A stretch of 64,000 nucleotides of DNA from Candidatus Omnitrophota bacterium (lineage in GTDB: Bacteria; Omnitrophota; Gorgyraeia; Zapsychrales; Zapsychraceae), in assembly GCA_020429915.1 (NCBI GenBank), contig JAGQKV010000018.1, positions 133,770-197,769 on the forward strand. The letters run 5' to 3'. This document shows positions 5,418-60,226 of this stretch, in pieces. Below the pieces are notes generated by a model, which saw only the letters and a list, made by a program, of their open reading frames with translations, was not told the origin of the DNA and made no database searches. Every line of letters starts with the position of its first letter. Within the stretch, counting starts at the first letter, position 1. The translations under genes and the position numbers were made by a program.

Positions 5418-6182
5418 TTGACAAAGATCGACTGGTTATCAATAATGAGGCGAATTCAATGGTTTCAGCCCCCGGACGGTCCGGCCCGTATGCATATCCT
5501 CATTCTCGTCATATCCCTTGTCCTCGGCTTTCTCACAGCCGGTCTGCTGGCAGGGATACCACCGGTCGTCCTGATCTCAGACATCTTCGGCACGGTGTTT
5601 GCACCGGATAAAAACTCCGGCGCCCTGGAAACCATCTCCGGCGCCAACTTTCTCCTTCCCTATTATTTCATGTTACTGTTTGCCCTGCTCGGTGTGGCCG
5701 GTGTCACCCTGTCGGGCAAAGTCTCCGCCTTTAATCGGCAGCGTCTGCGGTCACATATGGTTATTCAAACCGTCCTGGTCCTGTGCGTACTACTATTGTC
5801 GCAAACGCTCAGCCAGGCCCGCTATTTTGCAGAGGAACTGACCAAATTCACCGGAAAATCGCTGGACGAAAAGATGGCGTACAATTTCGCCAAGTCCTAC
5901 GGCTTTGCCCGCTACTGCCGGGAACATCTTCCCGGCCGGCACTACTGTGGCGTGATTTCGGATATTGACAAGCAGCCGCAGAAGAACCTGATCACCTACC
6001 TGGCCGTCCGCTACTACGTTTATCCGCTGGACATCGTCACACCGACCGATCCCTCCGAACAGGAATGCCAGATCGTTTTCTTAAAACAGCATCCGCGGGA
6101 AGCCGTCCCGCCGGGATACGTTATCAAGCCGCCGTTTGACAGCCGCAGCCTGATCGCGGTACGGGAGGATTCCGCGCCATGA
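5418..6182 (+). CDS. Hypothetical membrane protein, translationally coupled to the downstream membrane protein
   Basis: 254 aa with N-terminal TM helices (ILILVISLVLGFLTAGLLAGIPPVVLI; FLLPYYFMLLFALLGVAGVTL; VIQTVLVLCVLLL). Its stop overlaps the next ATG (ATGA at 6179-6182). The start is uncertain; in-frame Met candidates are at 5445 and 5490. Confidence 0.45.
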   Translation: MTKIDWLSIMRRIQWFQPPDGPARMHILILVISLVLGFLTAGLLAGIPPVVLISDIFGTVFAPDKNSGALETISGANFLLPYYFMLLFALLGVAGVTLSGKVSAFNRQRLRSHMVIQTVLVLCVLLLSQTLSQARYFAEELTKFTGKSLDEKMAYNFAKSYGFARYCREHLPGRHYCGVISDIDKQPQKNLITYLAVRYYVYPLDIVTPTDPSEQECQIVFLKQHPREAVPPGYVIKPPFDSRSLIAVREDSAP

Positions 6183-7579
6183 CCATTGTCAGACTCCTCA
6201 TTGCGCTGGGCTTTCCGGTTATCCTGGGACTGGCGTTGATGCGTCGTTTGCACGCGGACCGGTTGTTATCACTCGGCGCGCGCGTTCCCTGCGCGTTCGC
6301 CCTCGGGATGGGCATGGTGAGCCACTGGATGCTGCTGATGACCATAGCGGGCGTGGGCTATTCGGTGGTGAGCCTGCATCTGCCCCTGGCGGTTATCGCT
6401 GCCGCCTTGTGGCTTACGGCCGGTGGCAGCCATACGGACACGCCGGCGCCGAGGCAAGGCACCGCCGCCGGCGGTTGGCGCACGGCGGCATTGGTCGTGA
6501 TTTACGCCTTTATCGCATATATGACGGTGTTCATCGGCGTACGCGCGCTGATGGTCCCGATCATGGAGTGGGACGCGATATCCTGGATCGCGCTGAAGGC
6601 GAAAATCCTTTTTTATGAAAGCGGCGCGATCCCCATCGCCAAGCTTCCAAATTCCGCCTACCCGCTGCATGTGCCATTGAGCCTGGCGTGGATCGCCTTC
6701 CATCTCGGCGAGTGGAGCGAGACCCTGATCAAGGTCCTGTTTCCCACGTACTACCTCTTGTTCGCCCTTTTTCTGTACGCCACGGCGCGGCTATACGTCG
6801 ACCGTCTCTGGGCCGCCCTGTGCGCAGCCTTGTTCCTTTCGGTCCTCTTCGCTCCCTATCACGCGACCATCGCGTACCGCGATACGGTGATGATGAACTA
6901 TTTCTGCGGTGGCATGCTGGTGCTGGTTTACTGGCTGAAAAATACACGCCCGCCGTTGTTATGGATCACGGCGATCCTGTTAGGTCTCGGAAGCTTTGTC
7001 AAACTGGAAGGGGCTTTGTATATGGGACTGGGATTGATGCTCCTTGCCGCGGCGGTCTTGTTGTACGGTCCGCGGGAGCGCTTCGCCAAGATCCGCGCAA
7101 CCGGGATCAGCGCCGCCATTAGCGCGGGGATCTTTGCGATCTATTTCATCTATAAAAATCTGATTGGGGCAACCCACGCCACTCAGGACACCACGGTCCA
7201 CGCCGCCGGCGGGACAGGTTCCCGGCTGTGGGAAGTGCTGACGGCCGTCGGCCGGGAGCTTTTCTTAAGCGGTAATTGGCATATTTTGTGGGCGCTCTTC
7301 GCGCTGAGCATCTGGCTGCCGGTGGACCGGCAACGACAGGCGGCGCGTCTCGTTACCGCGGTCACCGTCATCGCGTTTATCACCGTGTATGTTGGCCTGG
7401 GGACGTTGACGGGCATCTACAAGTCGGTGCTTGGCCTGGGATCGTCCGGGGTCCTTCCCCGTATCTTCATACATGTGTATCCGTTGGCGGTGTTGAGCAT
7501 CTGCCTGGCGGCGGCTGAGCGGCCCGACAGCGTCGGAACCGGTCGTCCCCAGCAGGAGGGGAATGTCGGTGAGCGGTGA
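6179..7579 (+). CDS. Polytopic integral membrane protein (~12 TM), possibly GT-C-fold (ArnT/PMT-like) glycosyltransferase
   Basis: 466 aa, almost entirely hydrophobic helices with short loops. It pairs with the upstream membrane ORF. The family call rests on architecture only, with no motif match. Its last 315 nt overlap the 3' end of the giant minus-strand ORF (see findings). Confidence 0.4.
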   Translation: MTIVRLLIALGFPVILGLALMRRLHADRLLSLGARVPCAFALGMGMVSHWMLLMTIAGVGYSVVSLHLPLAVIAAALWLTAGGSHTDTPAPRQGTAAGGWRTAALVVIYAFIAYMTVFIGVRALMVPIMEWDAISWIALKAKILFYESGAIPIAKLPNSAYPLHVPLSLAWIAFHLGEWSETLIKVLFPTYYLLFALFLYATARLYVDRLWAALCAALFLSVLFAPYHATIAYRDTVMMNYFCGGMLVLVYWLKNTRPPLLWITAILLGLGSFVKLEGALYMGLGLMLLAAAVLLYGPRERFAKIRATGISAAISAGIFAIYFIYKNLIGATHATQDTTVHAAGGTGSRLWEVLTAVGRELFLSGNWHILWALFALSIWLPVDRQRQAARLVTAVTVIAFITVYVGLGTLTGIYKSVLGLGSSGVLPRIFIHVYPLAVLSICLAAAERPDSVGTGRPQQEGNVGER

Positions 7580-10500
7580 GATGTTGATGATAACGGGCAC
7601 AAAGCCGTTGATGTTGATGTTGTGCAGTTCCTGCGGCGTGAAATAAGTCGGCGTGAATACCCACTCTCCCTGAGTCCGCAATTCGTAGTTGGCCGGATTC
7701 AGGTCGATCCCCCCTTTGGTATCTTCGGTCAACAAGGCATTGTCGAGGATCTCCTGCATTAAGTCGCGGGCATTAAATAGCCAACTATCTCCCATGGTGA
7801 CCATCCTACTACCGGGCCGATTCATCCTTTCGATGCGCTCCTGGATAATCCGGTTAAAGGCCCGGATAATGTCGCGGTCGGCGTCCGACAACAAGGCCTT
7901 GTTGCGACTGAAGCGCATCAACGGATAAAGGCCCAAATCCCAATAGTCGTATCCGGAATTGCCGCTGGCCATCCAAGCCGTCAGGCGCGCAATCTTATTC
8001 AAATTGGCCTGCTTATGTCCGTCAAATACATGCGCAAAGTCCGGGCGGACGTCCTTGACACCCAGCTCCCAGAGCATATCGATAGCAACCTTACGCACTA
8101 GGAGATCGGTTGAACTCAGTGCCAGCTCAAGGGACGGGATTACCTGTTCCCGATCCACCGTTTCCAGCAAAAACTCTGACACGCGCAGGTGACGCGTGGC
8201 GTAATACTGGATGCGGGTCAGCGCCAATGCGGCGAGGACTCGCGATGAACGCTGCGGCGAATTCAATAACGGCGCCAGGTCCGCGAGTCCGTTGACATAT
8301 GTCTGTAATATCGCATCCGGCAAAACAGGATGCGTCGCGTACATTGGCCGATAGGTCCCGCGGGCGTTTAAGTCAATACGCGGTTGGATAAACAATAGGT
8401 CGGGCAAGACCAGACGGACCATGGAACCCAACACCCGCGCCGACTCGACGGCCACAGGCAGCGGATAATCTTTGCTACGATCCCTAAGACCGAGATTCGA
8501 TAGTAGTGTTTCTAACGAAGTACCGCCGGACCGCCGGGATAGCTCCGCAGGGTCGAGTCGATACAGCTGACGGTATTCTTCAATCATTGGACCAAAAACT
8601 TCTCTCCGACGGGTGTCGGCGTTGTATGCCGCGATATCCATGTAAATCTCTTGAATCTCCGCAACTGTCAAATCCTCATAACGGTTACTGGGGACCGACT
8701 GCGGGACTCCGGCGGTCCTCCGGGCGGTCAAACCGGGCGCGGTGCAGGCGGAACAGAGACCGACGACAGCCAACCCCAGGAAGGATCGGCGTGACATCTT
8801 GACGGCCTCTTCCGGACGAAAGCCTGAGTGCAGGGCGTTTCCGAAGGCGGCCGCCAACTGATCAAACAGTGTTGCCAAGTCCTCATCATCCGCAGAAACG
8901 ATGACCGCCTGGTCCGGAGTCTGCAGGGCGACAATGGCCTCAAGGAAATTGGTGATCACCACCGTCAGGCGCTCGCGGCGCACCTCGTCCCCCTTCAACA
9001 CACGCCGGGCTTCGGCCAGGATATCGTCGAATTCTTCCTTAAGCTTCCGACGCAAAGCACTCCGCTTTTCCTCTCCGGTGACGACCTTCCAATCTCCGTC
9101 TCTCACCCGGCCGTCGTCGATACGCGGCTGCAAGGTCTTATCACGCAGAAGACGGCCGTCTTCCCCGTTGTCCTCGATGACCTCACCGGTTTGTGGATTG
9201 CGTTCCCGCAGCAGAACATAACCCTGCTCGTAGCCGCCGGCCTTATCAAAACGGGCGCGGCGGATCGCATGGATCTTCTGAATACCGAACATATCCGCCA
9301 CCGCCCGGGCGTTCTTGGACATAGTGATCAACGCTCGGGCGTCGAATTGTCGGTTAACGTACAATGTTCGAAAAACGAGATCCGCCGTCGACAGGAACTT
9401 ATCGGCGTCCCGGACCACCAGGCTATCGGCGGCCGCACTGCCCGGCGCTTCCGGTTGCATCGGCCGATCACGCGTTGTGTCGATCTGCGTGTGGCGGACC
9501 GGATCCGGATAGACCGCCATGGCCGGATTGCCGTTCGGCGCAATCAGGATCCGGTCGCGGGCCGTGACTTCCTGGTCCATGGCGCGGGCCGAAATATTGT
9601 TGATAAACAAATGCGCCCGCGCGAAATCAAATTCTCCGTCACGGGTGAACAGCCGCGACCGGAGATCCTGCAGTCGAATCAGCCGGCGGTCCAGCGCCTC
9701 GCGATCTTCCGAACCAAGTCCCTCCTCCAGCTTGTCCCGCTCCAGTTTATAAATCCCGACATCCATCGCCAGGCGAAGAGCATCAATGAGCTGCGCCACG
9801 GTGTTGCCCGTGACATAGGGCCGGGACAACGGACCGGCCAGGTCGGCCAGCTCGTCGGCGATGACGACATCCAGCGTATTGCCCGGCAGTACAGAGCCGA
9901 GGGCATGCTTGATCACGGCGGCGGCGTCCCGGTTCATGATAAAGCGATCCCGTCCGTTGGCCAGAAAGGCCACGAATTCATCGGTGGTCAACGGCACGCC
10001 GACATACCCGAGGGCCTCGGCAAAGTTTTCATCAGCCAGTATCGCGTCGACCGCGCCGCGGTCGAATATCAAATAACTTTCCATCCCGTAGGGAGATTCC
10101 GTAGACGTCACCTTGACCCGGCCCAATCCGCGGTGATACGCTTCTTCCAAGATCATCTCCCGCCGCCGGGAACCGACTATCGCAAACGGCAACACGGCGA
10201 TGGGCGTTTCCCGACCGACCCGGCTCAAGTCCCGCGCTGATCGTACCAGCAGCGCGGCATCGGACTCATCCATAGCCTGCAGGGCATAAACGGCATCCAT
10301 GAAATTAGTCATCACGACCGTCATTCTCTCCCGGCGATGTTCCTCGCCATCCATGACGCGTTGCGCTTCGCTCATGACATCCTCAAACTCCTCCTGCAAT
10401 TTGGCATGCAGGGCCTCGCGCAACGCGCTTCCGGCGACGGTTATCCAGTCGCCTTCGCGAACCCGGCCGTTGTCGATGCGCGGCTGCAATGTGTTGTCGC

Positions 10501-12925
10501 GCAGCAGACGCCCCACCGGGCTGTTATCCTCGGTAATTTCGCCGGTGGCCGGATCACGCTCCCTTAAAAGGACAAACCCCTTCTCATAACCGCCGGACAT
10601 TTCCAATCGAGCTGCTCGTTGACCTTCGAAATTCGCAACGTTCATGGCATCCGCAATCGATTCGATTTGAGAGAGCATGATCCGCAACGAGTCCCGGTCA
10701 TATTTCTTATTAAGGTACAAAGCGCGGACGCTGGTGTTCGCCCGCTCCACAACCACCCGGACATTCCCCGCCAGTCGCACGCGGGCCGGTAGATACAGAC
10801 GCAGCAGATTCATGGTTTTTAGACCTACATCGCTCTTGCCCGGGACTCCAATCACGTTGGGGAAGGCCGTCATGACAAAGTTGCTCAACCGTGTCGGAAA
10901 CCAGTGGCCGTTGCCCAACTGATTGTCGCGGACAATCACCGGCAGGTCGGGATATGTCTCCCCCAATGCACGGGTGAATTGGATCCCGTTCATATCCGGC
11001 ATACTCACGTCAGTGATCACCATATCCGGACGGCGCTGTCCCACACTGGACAGTCCGGCGAGACCGCTGTCGGCCACGGTCACTTCGTAGCCCTCCTCTT
11101 CAATGCGGGCAATCAATTTTTCAACCTCACTGAAATTATCGTCCACCACGAGGACCAGCGGCTTACGGCCGTCGGCTTCACGGGGTTCGAAATGACGGCC
11201 GTTTCTCTCCGGCCAGTTTCGGGGATGACTGGTCAATTTCCGGGCCAATCCGGTGATGGTCTCATCGTCCGCAATGATCCCATACCCGATCACATTGTTC
11301 AGCAACACCAGTGTTCGGGTAGCCCGGCCGGTCTCGGTGACCGCATCCAGGACGGCGAGCAACAATTCCGCCGGCCGCATGCCCCGGAAGTTGTCCGTAT
11401 TACTTTCGTAAAGAAATGTGTAAAGCATGATTTGTTCGTACAGCGATTCTTTTTGCTCGGGAGCGGCGTCGATCAGGGCGTCGAGTCTGTTAACAATGGC
11501 CACCAGCTGCGCGGCGGTTTCATAACGCTTGCGCGGACGCAGCGGGCCGCGCTGCAGATCCCCGGGCAGACGGTCACGCGCTTCATCCCACAGATTGTAC
11601 CGGGGAAGCGCGGCCAACAATTCTTCTTTGAATCCCAGCGAGCGGACGGCGCGCCATTCCACTTCTTCAGTGACGCGGCCGAGCCTCCGGTCGAATTCGT
11701 CTTTGGACAGCATGGCTCCGTCACGCGCCTCCGTCACGCCGGCCCCGTCGGACAGGCGTTCTCCCTGAAACCGGTCCAGTATCACCGCGACGGTGCGGGC
11801 CCCTTCCAGGGTGTCACGCAGACGCTGCCGGCTCAACATCGATTCGTCAGTGGCGACTTGCACCTGTGCCTGCACGCCGCCGGAGAAATACTTGCGCGGC
11901 ACGGTGTGACGGGTCACGGGATCATAGTCTTCACGGATGTAGTCGTACACGCCCTTTTCAAACGCCGCGACATACTGCCGGTAGATCTTGCGGTTGATGT
12001 CGGCATCGGCCGTATCGACGCCGTCCGTCCTGGCCCGGTCGACATACACCTGACCGAGAAAACTTTCGCGCAAATTCTGTTTGTACCAACTCGCCAGAAT
12101 AACCGCGCTGAAGATCTGCCGCAGCGGCGCAAAGGTCCGGCCCGTATTCACCTCACGTTCGATTTCCGGAATAAGTACCTCACGCACGATATCGGCGGTG
12201 ATCCCGTTGTCACCATCGACGGCGCCGCTTTCGGCGTGATGTTCCGCCAGGCTGAGGTAATCCGATTCCAGCATGACCCGCAAATGAGAGTCAACCACAA
12301 ACACGGCTCCGTCATGCACATACACGGTGGCCGTCTGTGGAACGATCCAAACCTTATTGAAGGTGTTCATCGGGATGGCGGTGGTCCCGAAGCGCGCCTG
12401 CGCCTTTCGATACACACGCTCCCAAAACTCACGGCCGAGCTCCTCCTCCGGATACATGAGTGAGGCGGTGAGTTGCTTCAGGAGATAATCCTGGGCCAGC
12501 ATGTCACGGCCGAGACGTGTCCTGCCGAAGTCTGCGGGAATGATGCGGTCGGCTTCATAGGGTGACAAATTGACCCAGAGTTGATCTTCGGGCGTTGTCA
12601 ATGCGGCGAGAAAGTATTTGATGAGTTTATCGGATTCGTCCCGGAAGGCGGCATCATCCGCGGAAGCGTCGCCGGGATGGATCACGAATTCGAGCTTGAG
12701 CGGATTGCCTTCATCCAGCCGCATCCCGCGCATCAATGCCGGCTCGAAGCGGCCGGCCGGCTGCACCCGGGTCCCGGGCGCGGGCAGATCGAGTACGGTG
12801 GCGGGCTGAGCGGCACGGGCAGGAACCGGAGGCACAATCGTTCCCCAGACAAAGACCGCCGTGATCAACACGGACAAAATCTTGCGGCCACAGGAATCCC
12901 GCAATGTTCGTTCGAAAAGGGACAT
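7265..12925 (-). CDS. Giant multidomain secreted/membrane protein P1 (1886 aa): signal peptide, unknown N-terminal domain X shared with P2, REC domain, 2x repeated domain Y, internal Tat/lipobox-like segment, HEAT-like C-terminal region
   Basis: One uninterrupted frame of 5.66 kb. A random GC-rich frame would carry dozens of stops, so the open frame implies selection. The N-terminus is a signal peptide (KILSVLITAVFVWGTIVPPVPARAAQ). Residues ~45-350 are paralogous to the N-terminal domain of ORF 26102..29485, with shared blocks LWVNLSPYE..RIIP, DYLLKQLTASLMYPE, FNKVWI.P, LIPEIERE.N.G..FAPLRQI, SFLGQ.YVD, PR.YFSGG. The last ~100 aa are RQ-rich and low-complexity, antisense to the 6179..7579 gene, so the true 3' end is uncertain. 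Confidence 0.75.
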   Translation of the reverse strand: MSLFERTLRDSCGRKILSVLITAVFVWGTIVPPVPARAAQPATVLDLPAPGTRVQPAGRFEPALMRGMRLDEGNPLKLEFVIHPGDASADDAAFRDESDKLIKYFLAALTTPEDQLWVNLSPYEADRIIPADFGRTRLGRDMLAQDYLLKQLTASLMYPEEELGREFWERVYRKAQARFGTTAIPMNTFNKVWIVPQTATVYVHDGAVFVVDSHLRVMLESDYLSLAEHHAESGAVDGDNGITADIVREVLIPEIEREVNTGRTFAPLRQIFSAVILASWYKQNLRESFLGQVYVDRARTDGVDTADADINRKIYRQYVAAFEKGVYDYIREDYDPVTRHTVPRKYFSGGVQAQVQVATDESMLSRQRLRDTLEGARTVAVILDRFQGERLSDGAGVTEARDGAMLSKDEFDRRLGRVTEEVEWRAVRSLGFKEELLAALPRYNLWDEARDRLPGDLQRGPLRPRKRYETAAQLVAIVNRLDALIDAAPEQKESLYEQIMLYTFLYESNTDNFRGMRPAELLLAVLDAVTETGRATRTLVLLNNVIGYGIIADDETITGLARKLTSHPRNWPERNGRHFEPREADGRKPLVLVVDDNFSEVEKLIARIEEEGYEVTVADSGLAGLSSVGQRRPDMVITDVSMPDMNGIQFTRALGETYPDLPVIVRDNQLGNGHWFPTRLSNFVMTAFPNVIGVPGKSDVGLKTMNLLRLYLPARVRLAGNVRVVVERANTSVRALYLNKKYDRDSLRIMLSQIESIADAMNVANFEGQRAARLEMSGGYEKGFVLLRERDPATGEITEDNSPVGRLLRDNTLQPRIDNGRVREGDWITVAGSALREALHAKLQEEFEDVMSEAQRVMDGEEHRRERMTVVMTNFMDAVYALQAMDESDAALLVRSARDLSRVGRETPIAVLPFAIVGSRRREMILEEAYHRGLGRVKVTSTESPYGMESYLIFDRGAVDAILADENFAEALGYVGVPLTTDEFVAFLANGRDRFIMNRDAAAVIKHALGSVLPGNTLDVVIADELADLAGPLSRPYVTGNTVAQLIDALRLAMDVGIYKLERDKLEEGLGSEDREALDRRLIRLQDLRSRLFTRDGEFDFARAHLFINNISARAMDQEVTARDRILIAPNGNPAMAVYPDPVRHTQIDTTRDRPMQPEAPGSAAADSLVVRDADKFLSTADLVFRTLYVNRQFDARALITMSKNARAVADMFGIQKIHAIRRARFDKAGGYEQGYVLLRERNPQTGEVIEDNGEDGRLLRDKTLQPRIDDGRVRDGDWKVVTGEEKRSALRRKLKEEFDDILAEARRVLKGDEVRRERLTVVITNFLEAIVALQTPDQAVIVSADDEDLATLFDQLAAAFGNALHSGFRPEEAVKMSRRSFLGLAVVGLCSACTAPGLTARRTAGVPQSVPSNRYEDLTVAEIQEIYMDIAAYNADTRRREVFGPMIEEYRQLYRLDPAELSRRSGGTSLETLLSNLGLRDRSKDYPLPVAVESARVLGSMVRLVLPDLLFIQPRIDLNARGTYRPMYATHPVLPDAILQTYVNGLADLAPLLNSPQRSSRVLAALALTRIQYYATRHLRVSEFLLETVDREQVIPSLELALSSTDLLVRKVAIDMLWELGVKDVRPDFAHVFDGHKQANLNKIARLTAWMASGNSGYDYWDLGLYPLMRFSRNKALLSDADRDIIRAFNRIIQERIERMNRPGSRMVTMGDSWLFNARDLMQEILDNALLTEDTKGGIDLNPANYELRTQGEWVFTPTYFTPQELHNININGFVPVIINISPLTDIPLLLGTTGSDAVGPLSRRQADAQHRQRIHMYEDTGKDPGRSQAKHRLVDARQRPQANIHGDKRDDGDRGNETRRLSLPVHRQPDAQREERPQNMPITA
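8743..8797 (-). other. Internal Tat/lipoprotein-signal-like segment in P1 (MSRRSFLGLAVVGLCSAC) with an upstream SD-like sequence
   Basis: In-frame ATG at 8795-8797, preceded by GGAAGAGG with an ~8 nt spacer. It encodes a twin-arginine consensus S-R-R-x-F-L-G, a hydrophobic core and a lipobox L-C-S-A-C. The ~500 aa that follow are HEAT-like. Confidence 0.4.
8890..9405 (-). repeat. Internal duplication in P1, copy 2 of domain Y
   Basis: RTLYVNRQFDARALITMSK...RRARFDKAGGYEQGYVLLRERNPQTGEVIEDN..GRLLRDKTLQPRIDDGRVRDGDW...KLKEEFDDI..EARRVLKGDEVRRERLTVVITNF..A.VALQ. I estimate ~45-50% identity to copy 1 by eye. The copies are ~1.35 kb apart. Confidence 0.6.
10240..10755 (-). repeat. Internal protein-level tandem duplication in P1, copy 1 of a ~170 aa domain Y
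   Basis: Residues ~725-895 (RALYLNKKYDRDSLRIMLSQ...RAARLEMSGGYEKGFVLLRERDPATGEITEDN..GRLLRDNTLQPRIDNGRVREGDW...KLQEEFEDV..EAQRVMDGEEHRRERMTVVMTNF..A.YALQ) align with residues ~1175-1345. The duplication is also visible as two similar antisense ORFs in the track (10299..10589 and 8901..9221). Confidence 0.6.
10820..11170 (-). other. Embedded receiver (REC, CheY-like) domain inside P1, about aa 588-700
   Basis: KPLVLVVDDNFSEVEKLIARIEEEGYEVTVADSGLAGL...RPDMVITDVSMPDMNGIQF...LPVIV. It has the acidic pair (DD), the phospho-acceptor Asp (ITDVSMP) and the DMNG motif. The conserved Lys after beta5 is not obvious, so it may be degenerate. Confidence 0.6.
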
Positions 12926-19149: not shown

Positions 19150-19536
19150 ATGGAGACCGCCACGCCCCTCACTATCATGCTCATCGATGACGACCAGGAG
19201 ATTTCAGACGCGACCGCGGCGCTGCTGAGCAAACGCGGTTACCGGGTGTTACACGCGGGCACCGGCGAAGAAGGCCTGGAACTACTGCGCAGTCTCAGGC
19301 CGGATGTGATCATTCTGGATTACCGGCTGCCGGGAAAGAACGGGGATGTAATCACCGATATCATCAAGTCGGACGTGTCCACCGCCGGCATCCCGATTTT
19401 GATGTGTACGGCCCAAGCGACCCTGGCCCAGCCGTTGGGCGGGAATCCGCGCCTGCGCAAACCCGACGCCTACCTCATCAAACCTTTTACGTCCGCGCAG
19501 CTGCTGGAACAGGTCCGTTTATTGACGGGCGGATAA
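19150..19536 (+). CDS. Single-domain response regulator (REC only)
   Basis: 128 aa: LTIMLIDDDQE...DVIILDYRLPGKNGDV...ILMCTA...IKPF, the canonical CheY-like receiver. Its 3' end overlaps the convergent tex gene by 18 nt. Confidence 0.75.
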   Translation: METATPLTIMLIDDDQEISDATAALLSKRGYRVLHAGTGEEGLELLRSLRPDVIILDYRLPGKNGDVITDIIKSDVSTAGIPILMCTAQATLAQPLGGNPRLRKPDAYLIKPFTSAQLLEQVRLLTGG

Positions 19537-26101: not shown

Positions 26102-29100
26102 CTATTCCCGACCGGAAAAGATGAGGGCCTCGGAAACCGGTGTCAGTTCGACAATCACGGGACGGAGTCCGTTAATTAAAACTCCCGCCCTCTCCCCCGC
26201 GCCGGGGCTAGGGGAAAGACCATCCAGGCGACCACCGCGGTCGATGACAATTTCGTTCATGTCGATACCGCCGACCTCCGACAGTTGCGCGTTGTCCTGG
26301 GACCTGTTACGCCGGATATACCCGTAGAAAGCGAGCAGGGCCAGCAAGCCGCCGGCCGTCAGGCTCCAATTGCGAATCACCGGCCAGCGCTTCTCCTTGA
26401 ATATTCTCCACTCGAGTCCGTCAAAGTATTCCGGATCGACGGCCGCCAGTAAATCCAAATCATCGGCGTACACTTCCAGAAAATCTTCCCTGTCATAGGC
26501 GTCGAGCAAGCGCGTCTTCAGAATCGCGGCTAAGACCTCGCGGTCCGTTTCATTGTAGAGAATAGCATTAATATCTCTGTTCCTATTGTATCTTAGCGTT
26601 AGCTGCGGCGATGCATTGACCCGGGCCCGTACATCCAATAGTGTGACCGGATCCATGGCCAATACCTTCAGACTGGACACATAATCCACGGCGTTGGGGG
26701 ATCGGGCACTGTAGAAATGCCGTTCCACGATCGGCATCACTCCTTCCGTGTAACCGATACTGACCAGCGTGTCGGCAATGGCGGGATAATCTTCGTAGAG
26801 GTTGGAATTACCAAAAAGGCGTTCCACATCTATGATATCCCTCAAATACGGCCCGGCGGCCGCGGCCTCCGGCCCCATCCGGCGCATCCCTTCCAATGTC
26901 ACCAGGAACAGGCTGTTAAGACCCACGATCTTGGCTCTATGTAACCAGTATTTCTCCAGGACATCAATATATATGGGCAGGAGAGCTTCCTCGGGGACCT
27001 CCAGCCTATGCAACTGCTGCAGGGCCGCGATCCGGGCAGGTCCGTTGAGGTCTCTGGTATAAAGGTACGCCGAACTGCCCGGCATACTGGTGGGTGTGAA
27101 AATGTCCTCCGTGCGGGCAATCCTCAGCAAATCCTCCACCAATTCCGCCGGGACCGTCGCAAGGGCGCCGACAGAGCGAGCGGCATGCGTCCGCAATTCC
27201 GGTTGGGCTGAGTCCAGGTCCCGTCGAATACGCCTGATCCTCTCTGATTCCGGAACCTCTGACAGATATACAGCGCGCACCGAATCAGGCAAGCGTTCCG
27301 CAATCCGGTAAGCGAGCAATCGCATCCGCCATTCCTCACTATCCCGGTATTTCCTGATAGCCGGCAAAAGAGAGTTGGACTGCGCCTGGAGCCTTAAATA
27401 AATTTCGGTAAGGGCGGAGATGACGTTAGTGACTTCATACGGTATTGATTCTTCACTAATAATCCGCAACTGTCGAAGTCGTTCTTCGAGGACAGGTACG
27501 GCGGATTCATCGCCGATACGCTGCAAATCTCTGATCGCCACCACATGATTGCTACGGTCCGGGTACAATCCTCGGTTGCCGACGACCCGCCTGTCGGCGG
27601 CACGCAGCGCACGGGCATAGATCGGTATCGCCGCCTTGACCCCCTCGTTTTGAAATCTGGTCAATGCCTGGCTCAGCCCGTCATTGAGACGTCCGTCCGC
27701 TGTCATGAGCCGGCGGATTAAAAACGGAATCGCTCGCGGATCGCCGAACTCTAACAAACCTTCCGCCGCGCGGCCCTGCACATAGGGATCGGGACTTTCA
27801 AGCAGCCCCAGTAGGGCATTGTACGCCGGTTCGCCGAAACGTGTCAGAAGTCTGTAAGCGGACTTCGGCACGACTGTGTTGCCGGCGACATCCTGAAAGA
27901 CGGCCGATTGGGGATTTCCCAATTCCTGAATGAGGCGGTCCATAGCCCTGGGTCCCAGGGCCAGGAACTGATCTTCGTATCCCTTGGGAAAACCGAAATT
28001 GTCGCTGTCGCGGTAGATCGCTATCAACAAATCCTCAAGGCGATCCGCCTCGAACAACTGGATCACGGTCGTGTCCTGTTTGCCCTGGCCTCCGGCCTGA
28101 TCCCGTTCGCATGCCGTGCACACACCGAGGACAATGAGGCCGCTGAGAATAAGCCGTAAAGGCACGGATGTGCTGCGGAATTTCCCCTTAAACGGGACCT
28201 TGAGAATGTGTCCCAACTGCGTCAATATGGCTTGGTCCGAGGGGTAGGGAGAATTCCACTCAGGGTGGACTTGCAGGTTCACTTTATACAAATCACCCGT
28301 AAGGTTCCGGGCAAACATCGCCCGGTCGGGGCTGTGCCCGAGCGTAATGTCCGTACCGGTAAATCCTCCGGAGAAATAATGCCGGGGAATCGCATGAGCC
28401 GAGAGCAAATCCCGGTCTTCTTTGATGTAGTTGAAAACTCCGATCTTGTAAGCGGCCATATACTGATCGTAGATGCGACCTTGCATACTGGCGTCAACGT
28501 CGTCTATTCCACGGACCTTGTTGAGGTCAACGTAGGCCTGCCCCAAAAAGCTGTCCCGCAGGGTTTCTTTATACCATTGTGCCAAAATCAACGCGTTGTA
28601 GATTTGCCGTAAAGGCGCAAAATTCTCACCTTCATTAATCTCCCGTTCAATCTCCGGCAAAATTAAATCGCGCACAATCTCGGCACTGAGAGGAAGTTCC
28701 GCGGGGGCATGTGCGCGGGCGGCGAAATCATCGGCCTGCCGCAACGCCTGATAGTCATGATCCAGCATGACTTTCAAGCGCGATTGGACGATATATACCG
28801 TCGATTGATCCTCGTAAACCCGCGCATAATCCGGCAGGATCCAGACCTTGTTGAACGTTTCCAGCGGAATATCCGTTGTCCCGTACCGGGCGCGGGCCTT
28901 GTTATAAATACGCTCCCAGAAGGTTTTCCCCAATTCCTGCTCGGGGTACATCAAACTCGCCGTCAGCTGCTTAAGCAGATAATCTTGTTTAAGTAAGTCC
29001 CGACCCATCTGCGTGCGGGCCAAATCCGGCGGAATGATCCGCTCTGACTCATAAGGTGATAAATTAACCCATAAATCTCCCTGGGGAACCGTCAAAGACG

Positions 29101-29485
29101 TCAGAAAATATTTCGCCATCTTTTGAGCCTCGTGACGAATGCCCTCGCGGGAGATGCTGGCGTCTCCGCTTTCCATAATAAACTCGAAATGGAAAGGCTC
29201 GTCCGGATAGACCGTCATTCCCTTGACCAGAACCGGGTGATAAGCGGGACTCGGAGCGACTCGAACACCGGGCACGGGCAACCCCTCAGCTCCGGCACCG
29301 GGATCGGCACCATAGACCGGGGCCGGCAGCATCACGTTGCCGGTGATAAAGCAAACCATCAGGGCAACGGTAACGATCCGGCGAAAGATTCCATTCCTGG
29401 GTTGATGTTGTTCGATAAACATGGGACTCCCCGAATACGAAAAACGGCCGGCCATGCCGATCATGGCCAAACGGTATTCGCTCAA
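26102..29485 (-). CDS. Giant secreted/membrane protein P2 (1127 aa): signal peptide, domain X (paralog of the P1 N-domain), internal hydrophobic lipobox-like segment, HEAT/PBS-lyase-like repeats, C-terminal TM helix
   Basis: Signal peptide RRIVTVALMVCFITGNVMLPAPVYGA; the real start may be the in-frame Met at 29422 (MFIEQHQ...). Residues ~65-400 align with P1 residues ~45-350. An internal hydrophobic segment LRLILSGLIVLGVCTAC (28108-28159) parallels LAVVGLCSAC in P1. Then come HEAT-like repeats (YVQGRAAEGLLEFGDPRAIPFLIRRL...) and a C-terminal TM (WSLTAGGLLALLAFYGYIRR). Confidence 0.75.
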   Translation of the reverse strand: MSEYRLAMIGMAGRFSYSGSPMFIEQHQPRNGIFRRIVTVALMVCFITGNVMLPAPVYGADPGAGAEGLPVPGVRVAPSPAYHPVLVKGMTVYPDEPFHFEFIMESGDASISREGIRHEAQKMAKYFLTSLTVPQGDLWVNLSPYESERIIPPDLARTQMGRDLLKQDYLLKQLTASLMYPEQELGKTFWERIYNKARARYGTTDIPLETFNKVWILPDYARVYEDQSTVYIVQSRLKVMLDHDYQALRQADDFAARAHAPAELPLSAEIVRDLILPEIEREINEGENFAPLRQIYNALILAQWYKETLRDSFLGQAYVDLNKVRGIDDVDASMQGRIYDQYMAAYKIGVFNYIKEDRDLLSAHAIPRHYFSGGFTGTDITLGHSPDRAMFARNLTGDLYKVNLQVHPEWNSPYPSDQAILTQLGHILKVPFKGKFRSTSVPLRLILSGLIVLGVCTACERDQAGGQGKQDTTVIQLFEADRLEDLLIAIYRDSDNFGFPKGYEDQFLALGPRAMDRLIQELGNPQSAVFQDVAGNTVVPKSAYRLLTRFGEPAYNALLGLLESPDPYVQGRAAEGLLEFGDPRAIPFLIRRLMTADGRLNDGLSQALTRFQNEGVKAAIPIYARALRAADRRVVGNRGLYPDRSNHVVAIRDLQRIGDESAVPVLEERLRQLRIISEESIPYEVTNVISALTEIYLRLQAQSNSLLPAIRKYRDSEEWRMRLLAYRIAERLPDSVRAVYLSEVPESERIRRIRRDLDSAQPELRTHAARSVGALATVPAELVEDLLRIARTEDIFTPTSMPGSSAYLYTRDLNGPARIAALQQLHRLEVPEEALLPIYIDVLEKYWLHRAKIVGLNSLFLVTLEGMRRMGPEAAAAGPYLRDIIDVERLFGNSNLYEDYPAIADTLVSIGYTEGVMPIVERHFYSARSPNAVDYVSSLKVLAMDPVTLLDVRARVNASPQLTLRYNRNRDINAILYNETDREVLAAILKTRLLDAYDREDFLEVYADDLDLLAAVDPEYFDGLEWRIFKEKRWPVIRNWSLTAGGLLALLAFYGYIRRNRSQDNAQLSEVGGIDMNEIVIDRGGRLDGLSPSPGAGERAGVLINGLRPVIVELTPVSEALIFSGRE

Positions 29486-59013: not shown

Positions 59014-59376
59014 TCAGCCCGACAGCTGGCGGACTTTACTTAGCAATTCACTAAAATCCGCGGTCTTGCAAATAATGGCATCCATCCCAATATTCTTCTT
59101 GAGATCTTCCTCATCCGTGACCAACCGCGCGGTATAGATAATAACCGGGACACTCTTAAAACGCGCGTCGGCCTTGAGCAACGCACACATCTTGTACCCG
59201 TTTAGTTTGGGCATCATTTCGTCCAGAATGACCAAATCAGGCCCTTCCGATTTGACCATCGTCAAACCGGCCTGGCCGTCTTCAGCGGTTATGACTTCAT
59301 AACCTTCCGCTTCAAAGCGATATTTGATGGTCTCTAAGATATCCGGTTCGTCTTCGACGATAAGTATTTTCTTCAT
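59014..59376 (-). CDS. Single-domain CheY-like response regulator
   Basis: 120 aa: KILIVEDEPD...DLVILDEMMPKLNG...VPVIIYTA...ICKTADF. Confidence 0.75.
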   Translation of the reverse strand: MKKILIVEDEPDILETIKYRFEAEGYEVITAEDGQAGLTMVKSEGPDLVILDEMMPKLNGYKMCALLKADARFKSVPVIIYTARLVTDEEDLKKNIGMDAIICKTADFSELLSKVRQLSG

Positions 59377-59440: not shown

Positions 59441-60226
59441 CTAAAAAACACCGTTAACGGCGGGTAGGATATCGCTGAAATCATCGGACGGAACATATTT
59501 ATCCACTCCGTCTTTATGCGCTATGGTGGATGTGATGACCGTCTTATCAACATCAGCCTCACGGCTGGAGTACAGGACGATCCTGAAATTTTGTGCAATA
59601 TTCTCGCGCACCAGTTTTCCGACCAGAATGTCTCCCGAGATATCCCGCAGCAACATATTGATAACGGCCACATCCGGCGGATCGAGCTTCATCCGTCTGA
59701 TAGCAGCCGAACCGCTGTGAGCGATCTGAACCACGTAACCGCAGCATAGAAATCCGAGCGACAGCTTTTGCATGATCTTGGGATTGTCCTCCACAATACA
59801 GATCCGACGCGCCCGCACGACACCCACTGTCGATTCGTTATGCAATACTCCCGAGTTGCTGAGGATGATTTGTTCAGCGGTTTGCAAAAGATCGTCCAGC
59901 TCAAACGGTTTGGCCATAAAGCCGTCGGCGTCGAGATCATGAAACAGGTTCTCCATGTTAGCCCGCGCGGTCAGGATCAGGACGGGGTACTTGGTGCGAT
60001 CATCGGGCCCCTTGATTCTTTGATAAAACTCCAGTCCGTTCATGCGCGGCATGTTAACGTCGAGTATGATCAAATCGGGCTCCAAATCCGCGAGTTTCTC
60101 CAACCCGTCAACGCCGTCTATGGCGGTTACGACGGTATAGCCGGCCGCTTTAAATTTATACCCAACGGTGTCGCGCAGGTCTTCCTCATCATCGATAATC
60201 AATACGGTCTTGGGGTGATGGCTCAT
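59441..60226 (-). CDS. Response regulator with an N-terminal REC and a second degenerate REC-like domain
   Basis: 261 aa. REC1: VLIIDDEEDLRD...DLIILDVNMPRMNG...VLILTARAN...KPF. A second alpha/beta unit (ICIVEDNPKI...DVAVINMLLRDISGD...) lacks a clear acceptor Asp context. Confidence 0.65.
   Translation of the reverse strand: MSHHPKTVLIIDDEEDLRDTVGYKFKAAGYTVVTAIDGVDGLEKLADLEPDLIILDVNMPRMNGLEFYQRIKGPDDRTKYPVLILTARANMENLFHDLDADGFMAKPFELDDLLQTAEQIILSNSGVLHNESTVGVVRARRICIVEDNPKIMQKLSLGFLCCGYVVQIAHSGSAAIRRMKLDPPDVAVINMLLRDISGDILVGKLVRENIAQNFRIVLYSSREADVDKTVITSTIAHKDGVDKYVPSDDFSDILPAVNGVF

Follow-up and report, generated by a model that had tools for sequence, protein, structure and literature searches.

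A modular Omnitrophota protein whose internal Tat-like segment is probably a conserved hydrophobic element and not a translation start

The DNA considered here is a stretch of 64,000 nucleotides (nt) from a Candidatus Omnitrophota bacterium (contig JAGQKV010000018.1, positions 133,770 to 197,769), hereafter the window. Its minus strand carries an open reading frame (ORF) at 7265..12925 that encodes P1, a protein of 1886 amino acids (aa). A first-pass annotation had read P1 as a fused mosaic with an embedded receiver domain, a duplicated domain and an internal lipoprotein signal of the twin-arginine translocation (Tat) type, for which either internal initiation or a recent gene fusion was proposed. 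Comparison with orthologs and paralogs indicates that P1 is probably a single polypeptide belonging to an Omnitrophota family made up of an N-terminal cap, cargo and a C-terminal cap, and that the Tat-like segment is a conserved hydrophobic element and not a start. The result is mainly a correction: P1 is neither host to a nested Tat-lipoprotein gene nor the product of a recent fusion. The features of P1, in window coordinates and in the order in which they are translated, are as follows.

12806..12925, minus strand: signal-peptide-like or signal-anchor segment, aa 1-40, with a basic n-region, ILSVLITAVFVWGTIVPPVP and ARA-AQ
11861..12805, minus strand: domain X (N-cap), aa ~41-355, the conserved N-terminal family module of ~320 aa
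11831..11848, minus strand: junction motif TDESMLS, aa 360-365, from the family motif count
11705..11722, minus strand: second junction motif RDGAMLS, aa 402-407, from the same count
10826..11164, minus strand: atypical receiver (REC), aa 588-700, from the PF00072 match
10262..10741, minus strand: domain Y copy 1, aa 729-888, from self-comparison, with a confident AlphaFold2 (AF2) model
9386..10261, minus strand: aa 889-1180, lying between the Y copies, unassigned, with conservation confined to the orthologs
8906..9385, minus strand: domain Y copy 2, aa 1181-1340, 52% identical to copy 1
8735..8797, minus strand: internal hydrophobic segment with the Tat-like motif and two Cys, aa 1377-1397 (MSRRSFLGLAVVGLCSACTAP), from ortholog alignment and hydropathy
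7751..8728, minus strand: C-terminal, weakly HEAT-like region, aa 1400-1725 (Pfam HEAT_2 E 0.025 at ~aa 1587-1630), conserved in the orthologs only
7541..7750, minus strand: C-cap module, aa 1726-1795 (DNALLTEDTKGGIDLNP...NGFVPVIINISPLTDIPLLLG), from family comparison and hhalign
7508..12925, minus strand: coding region shared with the orthologs, aa 1-1806, from colinear alignment with P0002 and P0003
7265..7507, minus strand: 80-aa read-through tail and stop codon, not in the orthologs, with CAG at the position where P0002 ends

Full-length orthologs of P1 are two in number and come from independent datasets. P0002 (1803 aa, 89% identity) is from an NCBI metagenome-assembled genome (MAG) of Omnitrophica, where it is named “response regulator,” and P0003 (1786 aa, 72% identity) is from a Logan assembly. 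Both are single polypeptides encoded by single ORFs with the module order of P1. When the three proteins are aligned, colinearity extends over the full length and takes in the receiver, the two copies of Y, the hydrophobic segment and the unassigned regions. The locus of P0003 (L001) is also syntenic with the window: Tex, DnaX, RecR and the P1 ortholog are followed by a convergent membrane-protein gene. A search of a large protein collection additionally found a protein identical to P1 (1886 aa) in a separate ENA record. The picture of P1 as a mosaic of modules is borne out, with the coordinates first given for its features correct to within a few codons. As to whether the parts of P1 would be separate genes in related genomes, as the first-pass annotation had asked, both full-length orthologs are single polypeptides and nothing is split.

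The mosaic becomes understandable when the wider family is considered. A family search returned 3246 proteins at E<=0.001 among 8000 scored candidates, some of the weaker ones possibly being receiver-only matches; the statistics given here come from the best 120 non-identical homologs, with 121 proteins in the motif and hydropathy counts. These 120 homologs are all from Omnitrophota, are 1000-3200 aa long, and align with P1 only through its first ~350 residues (domain X) at 45-60% identity. Forty-nine paralogs are 50-60% identical within domain X, and more than 50 columns are invariant across 50 sequences. Of the 121 members, 116 have a hydrophobic segment at the N-terminus, with a basic n-region and an ending of the A-x-A/YAQ type. 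At the opposite end stands the C-cap, a module of ~60 aa with the consensus GGIDLNPxxLDLQIKRDGxGVPLPxxxQPIxxMxIxGFxPVIINVTPVxNLPLLLG and then an acidic tail; in short form the module is GGIDLN...PVIINI.P...LPLLLG, and in P1 it lies at aa 1738-1795. A match to GGI[DN] with the module after it is found in 117 of the 120 listed homologs; two are without the match, and one has an internal match without the module. Each cap occurs once per protein in P1, P2 (below) and P0004-P0124. Pfam and NCBIfam have no model for domain X or for the C-cap, neither of which found a structural match, and a literature search for C-cap motif strings gave no match. Between the caps, precomputed Pfam annotations list PGK, PGI, PGM, UGPase, PPDK/PEP-utilising, GAPDH, TIM, enolase, REC, HATPase and HEAT domains as cargo. 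The cargo of P1 comprises the atypical receiver, the two Y copies, two unassigned regions, the internal hydrophobic segment and the weakly HEAT-like region. By its architecture, P1 is placed in a large Omnitrophota-specific family in which the two caps are fixed and the cargo between them, of cytoplasmic type, varies.

One other paralog is encoded in the 64-kb window:

26102..29485, minus strand: P2, the second family paralog, 1127 aa, with domain X, a hydrophobic CTAC segment, HEAT repeats and the C-cap

Residues 1-350 of P1 are 50% identical to P2 (E 4e-113). Domain X of P2 lies at 28364-29281, and its C-cap, a divergent copy (aa 1072-1125), at 26102-26296. From domain X to the hydrophobic segment there are ~66 aa in P2 and ~1025 aa in P1, which leaves P1 with ~960 aa extra, close to the insertion of ~950 aa originally described. 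Nevertheless, “P2 plus insertion” is too simple, since little is shared outside the caps: the likeness beyond domain X is confined to a short hydrophobic/CxAC stretch (pairwise E 0.002), the C-cap (hhalign E 4e-4) and a weak HEAT-like similarity. A model of P1 as a P2 scaffold with an insertion was dropped, as hhalign of the C-terminal regions found the C-cap only. The insertion relative to P2 is P1's cargo.

The internal segment that gave rise to the Tat-lipoprotein proposal reads MSRRSFLGLAVVGLCSAC in P1. Met1377 (nt 8795-8797) is followed by SRRSFLGLAVVGLCSAC, and a string resembling a Shine-Dalgarno (SD) sequence, GGAAGAGG, ends 8 nt upstream of its ATG. The twin-arginine motif [ST]-R-R-x-F-L-K is matched by SRRSFLG in P1 (aa 1378-1384) and by SRRAFLG and SRRTFLG in the orthologs, whose consensus is ISRR[AT]FLG[LV]AVVG[LF]CSACTA. 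Ile replaces Met1377 in both; in L001 the codon is ATC, with the same ggaagaggcc string before it. The SD-like string encodes a conserved Pro-Glu/Asp-Glu-Ala peptide (Glu-Glu codons), and GFRP[ED]EAVK, directly upstream of the segment, is kept as protein in the orthologs. The ATG and the well-spaced SD-like string are thus present as first described, but the string is not unusual, similar ones standing before 4 of the 47 internal in-frame ATGs of P1. Moreover, an SD-like string says little about where translation starts in this organism, because many of the 18 presumed gene starts (of long ORFs) inspected in the window, P1's own included, are without a clear SD.

The Tat-lipoprotein assignment stands as regards the SRRxFL motif but not as regards the remainder of the signal. 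Checked with the Tat hidden Markov models (HMMs), the segment scores 9.8 bits with TIGR01409 (cut-off 16.7) and 11.9 bits with PF10518 (cut-off 22.7). The classical lipobox follows the pattern [LVI][ASTVI][GAS]-C, and the fit is poor at both Cys, with Leu at -1 in VGL-C1391 and Cys at -3 in CSA-C1394. In common with genuine Tat lipoprotein signals (TIGR01409/PF10518 plus lipobox), the P1 segment has S-R-R-x-F-L-G, ~12 hydrophobic residues and a Cys; it differs in lying 1376 residues from the N-terminus, in its non-conserved start codon, in its sub-threshold HMM scores and in the lipobox misfit at -1/-3. A promoter and terminator scan found no promoter-like site near 8797 on the minus strand, and regional counts were not above those in shuffles. 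The Kyte-Doolittle mean over 19 residues is 1.67. Among the family proteins compared, an Arg-Arg pair in an interior segment is seen only in P1's orthologs and P0008. The segment is best described as a conserved internal hydrophobic element and not a translation start; most likely it forms a membrane-spanning or membrane-inserted helix, and possibly it is the fossil of a signal peptide fused long ago. An ending of the form G-x-C-[ST]-x(1,2)-C recurs in P1, P2 (aa 441-462, window ~28100-28165), P0113 and P0053 (~1370-1395).

Another element common in the family is the junction motif D-x-[AS]-M-[LVI]-[SGA], with 116 occurrences in the 121 proteins and 15 in shuffles, an enrichment of ~8-fold. 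It often joins the cargo modules and marks their boundaries, its places being directly behind domain X, ahead of every receiver module (e.g., DKAMLSGKRILVVDD) and ahead of the C-cap; the internal segment of P1 has no such motif before it. It might serve as a linker, mark a site of cleavage or be what is left of a former start codon. In several paralogs, the interior segment that begins at the junction Met resembles a complete signal peptide: Tat-like in P0008 (aa ~358-395), lipoprotein-like in P0020 (~722-755) and Sec-like in P0045 and P0082 (~385-415). P0113 (~375-410) has a lipoprotein-like interior segment too, but there the initial Met is not part of a junction motif. No consistent SD was found upstream of the junction Mets in the four genes compared at the DNA level, and their use as internal starts was left as a low-probability reading. 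A more general proposal is that the interior signal-like segments and DxAMLS junctions are functional boundaries of polyprotein-like precursors or nested products, which are cut or re-initiated and then sorted via the end modules. This is doubtful, but would account for receivers and ATP-dependent glycolytic enzymes behind Omnitrophota export signals, and would make SRRxFLG...CSAC of P1 a working internal sorting or lipidation signal, not a plain membrane helix.

How else could the internal segment and the mosaic be explained? Initiation at the ATG at 8795-8797 would release a separate Tat-exported lipoprotein of ~430-500 aa, and GGAAGAGG 8 nt before the ATG, the fit of SRRSFLG to the twin-arginine consensus and a hydrophobic stretch ending in Cys are all features that such a product would have. 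Nested proteins made by internal initiation include CheA-S, IF2-beta and ClpB-79, whose internal starts are conserved among orthologs. P1 shares with these an in-frame ATG and SD-like string inside a long ORF, but its putative start is not conserved: both orthologs have Ile in place of its Met but keep the remainder of the segment, and conserved internal initiation is unsupported. With the SD-like string explained by conserved Glu-Glu codons, the Tat models below their cut-offs, a poor lipobox at both Cys and no promoter-like site nearby, this origin of the C-terminal part is very unlikely. The first-pass annotation had itself named uniformly single polypeptides in orthologs as evidence against this reading and the fusion reading alike, and this is what was found, the orthologs being single polypeptides without the ATG (n = 2). 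From the Met onward the segment also resembles a precursor N-terminus, as would be expected had neighboring genes been joined through loss of a stop codon just upstream of Met1377, and the stop-codon difference at the 3' end of P1 (below) shows that such events occur at this locus. However, the same fused architecture is present in the orthologs at 89 and 72% identity, the upstream GFRP[ED]EAVK is conserved as protein, and P2 has a comparable hydrophobic CxAC segment in its interior, where the parts follow one another in a corresponding order. Because the single-ORF architecture is kept at 72% identity, a recent fusion by stop loss can be discounted as highly improbable; an ancient fusion of a signal-peptide-bearing precursor is possible as the origin of the segment. 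An artefact of assembly or gene calling (a chimeric contig, or a frameshift joining ORFs) would explain why the C-terminal 80 aa look like a non-functional extension, but is barely conceivable given the identical 1886-aa protein in a separate ENA record, the colinear orthologs from an NCBI MAG and a Logan assembly, the absence of any frame break and the conservation of the unusual C-terminal half of the receiver in the orthologs.

A further alternative is that a single precursor is processed after translation near the CSAC and/or DxAML junctions, giving a receiver fragment and a membrane- or lipid-anchored C-terminal product. SRRxFLG...CSAC is kept more strictly than its flanks, signal-peptide-like interior segments are found in P0008, P0020, P0045, P0082 and P0113, the junction motif is strongly enriched, and one preprint proposes cleavage of Omnitrophota giant proteins (bioRxiv 10.1101/2023.11.21.568195). 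Processing is nonetheless unlikely for P1. Should the N-terminal signal be used, the segment would cross from outside to inside, and its Cys motif would face away from the side where lipoproteins are processed; the RR pair is restricted to P1's orthologs and P0008; and the lipobox fit is poor. The reading of P1 as a single polypeptide with a conserved hydrophobic element is not without difficulties of its own. The uniformity of the orthologs is that of two sequences, and the segment is only moderately hydrophobic (Kyte-Doolittle mean as above), so that a transmembrane (TM) helix is deduced. Strict retention of SRRxFLG exceeds the needs of a plain TM helix and hints at a specific role. Low-level internal initiation may also occur in this strain, where the ATG and a well-spaced SD-like string are both present. 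Finally, fold searches with domain X, domain Y and the C-cap gave no specific match that would point to their functions.

The N-terminal and internal hydrophobic segments of P1 would associate it with the membrane. It could act as a membrane-associated scaffold or regulatory protein, localized or assembled through the shared end modules together with enzyme-bearing paralogs. That the caps co-localize family members is suggested by architecture alone.

The receiver domain of P1 is real, as had been recognized from its sequence, but it is unusual. PF00072 matches aa 591-665 (nt ~10931-11155) with 60.1 bits (cut-off 30.2, E 2.7e-16), covering profile positions 1-75 of 111, and all 60 listed PDB receiver matches break off at about residue 80-85 of the domain, after beta4. 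In a MAFFT alignment with CheY and 17 paralog receiver modules, less certain in the C-terminal half, the acidic pocket (D595 and D596, equivalent to CheY D12 and D13) and the phospho-acceptor D639 (D57) are kept in P1 and both orthologs. By contrast, the position of CheY T87 is occupied by D667 and that of K109 by V694 (VIGVPGK, with a Lys three residues later), again in all three proteins, whereas the paralog receivers keep Lys at the K109 position and, in most cases, Ser/Thr. The unusual C-terminal half is itself conserved in both orthologs. Compared with CheY-like receivers of PF00072, pseudo-receivers included, the P1 domain retains a recognizable N-terminal three-fifths (beta/alpha), the Asp-Asp pocket and the phospho-acceptor Asp. 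It departs from them in a match that ends after beta4, in the exchanges of Thr/Ser for Asp and Lys for Val, and in its setting, the interior of a protein of 1.8 thousand aa behind a signal-like N-terminus and without a recognizable output domain. It is best called an atypical receiver, whose Asp pocket may bind phosphate or metal although the canonical Thr/Lys switch appears to be missing, and as a degenerate receiver it is a possible regulatory module. The name “response regulator” given to P0002 overstates the evidence, which is for an atypical receiver embedded in a modular protein of 1.8 thousand aa. Further receiver matches in the window are located at 59122-59367 (minus strand), 59957-60205 (minus strand) and 19174-19344 (plus strand). 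The last of these, judged by position only, may correspond to a stand-alone receiver gene of 124 aa next to Tex in L001.

The duplicated domain Y is equally genuine. Its two copies are 52% identical over 160 aa with zero gaps (E 1e-55), far beyond chance. Corresponding copies in P1 and the orthologs match at 90 and 66%, more closely than the two copies within one protein do (49-52%), which dates the duplication to before these genomes diverged. Structure prediction, which had been suggested as a check, gives a confident helical bundle (AF2, copy 1, predicted local distance difference test score (pLDDT) 90.7) but yielded no specific structural match in fold searches. The region between the copies, aa 889-1180, has no Pfam or PDB sequence match. 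A word-index homology search with the 687-aa stretch aa 690-1376 returned one partial protein and missed the known orthologs. An exhaustive search of 1.84 billion cluster representatives with a Y profile built from seven sequences found nine proteins; a scan of genome contigs found one locus only (L002), and a scan of metagenomes found none. All Y proteins with an N-terminal domain X (P0122, P0123, P0124, P0004 and the L002 ORF) also have the C-cap, and several have a receiver. By these searches domain Y is a real module restricted to this Omnitrophota family. In two proteins (L002 4974-16223, plus strand; P0004, P0122-P0124 set) it adjoins an AAA_18 kinase-like domain, and it co-occurs with GNAT, PfkB, methyltransferase and receiver modules in family members of 2.3-4.7 thousand aa (L002, P0004, P0122-P0124).

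The first-pass annotation had pointed out that a receiver with a signal-like N-terminus before it and a hydrophobic segment after it is topologically odd. Odd it is, but it is not special to P1 and is the rule in the family. The receivers of paralogs come after domain X, mostly without a hydrophobic segment between, as with the four receivers of P0117. In 93 of the 121 members there is no strongly hydrophobic segment between the N-terminus and the C-cap, and the cargo still has ATP- or NAD-dependent enzymes.

Similar puzzles have been described for long proteins of this phylum. According to two preprints, long Omnitrophota proteins combine sugar-metabolism enzymes, REC domains, HEAT scaffolding and a signal-peptide/TM topology (bioRxiv 10.64898/2026.06.07.730766; bioRxiv 10.1101/2023.11.21.568195). 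The former describes “multi-enzyme metabolic clusters” predicted to have a signal peptide plus TM segments, and reports PF00072 in 105 long proteins (bioRxiv 10.64898/2026.06.07.730766). The latter calls some localization predictions for giant proteins implausible, proposes post-translational cleavage and states that the N-terminal regions of giant proteins are generally without identifiable domains (bioRxiv 10.1101/2023.11.21.568195). The P1 family shares with the Archaeovorins and the multi-enzyme metabolic cluster proteins the phylum, the mixture of enzyme and signaling domains including REC, HEAT-type scaffolding, a signal-like N-terminus, sparse internal hydrophobic segments, the localization puzzle and the suggestion of processing. 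It differs in size, P1 having 1.8 thousand aa and not 10 thousand or more. Against the Archaeovorin-type giants, described in the West-Roberts et al. preprint as having tens of thousands of residues and many TM segments, P1 has 1806-1886 aa and one internal hydrophobic segment.

P1 belongs, as a member of medium size, to a class of modular Omnitrophota proteins that is known but little understood. As far as the text of the two preprints was covered, it does not name the C-cap, the junction motif or domains X and Y (bioRxiv 10.64898/2026.06.07.730766; bioRxiv 10.1101/2023.11.21.568195). To that extent, domain X, the C-cap and the DxAML motif are handles that the two preprints leave unused. They seem to mark out a very large group of Omnitrophota proteins in which central-metabolism enzymes and receivers follow a signal-like N-terminus. 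If the end modules are sorting or assembly signals, proteins of 1-3 thousand aa such as P1 and P2 would be tractable models for the location and processing of giant multi-enzyme proteins.

The C-termini of P1 and its orthologs differ. P0002 ends in ...GPLSRR* and P0003 in ...LGH* a few residues earlier, while P1 has CAG (Gln) at the position where P0002 ends; the end of P0002 was compared at the protein level, so that the stop codon changed to CAG (TAG or TAA) is presumed and not seen in P0002 DNA. P1 has been lengthened from 1806 to 1886 aa in this strain via loss of the stop codon of its closest ortholog, and the 80-aa tail is most likely non-functional read-through. The tail runs antisense to the convergent membrane-protein gene at 6179..7579 (plus strand), over the conserved 3' portion of that gene, whose product matches its L001 ortholog at 75% identity as far as residue 447 (~nt 7519). 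In L001 the P1 ortholog and the convergent gene overlap by 7 nt.

Two long ORFs lie within P1 on the opposite strand, at 8828-10240 (plus strand, 470 aa) and 10904-12463 (plus strand, 519 aa). Their translations look to be of low complexity and rich in Arg, Gly and Pro, and both are most likely shadow ORFs of the GC-rich coding sequence of P1.

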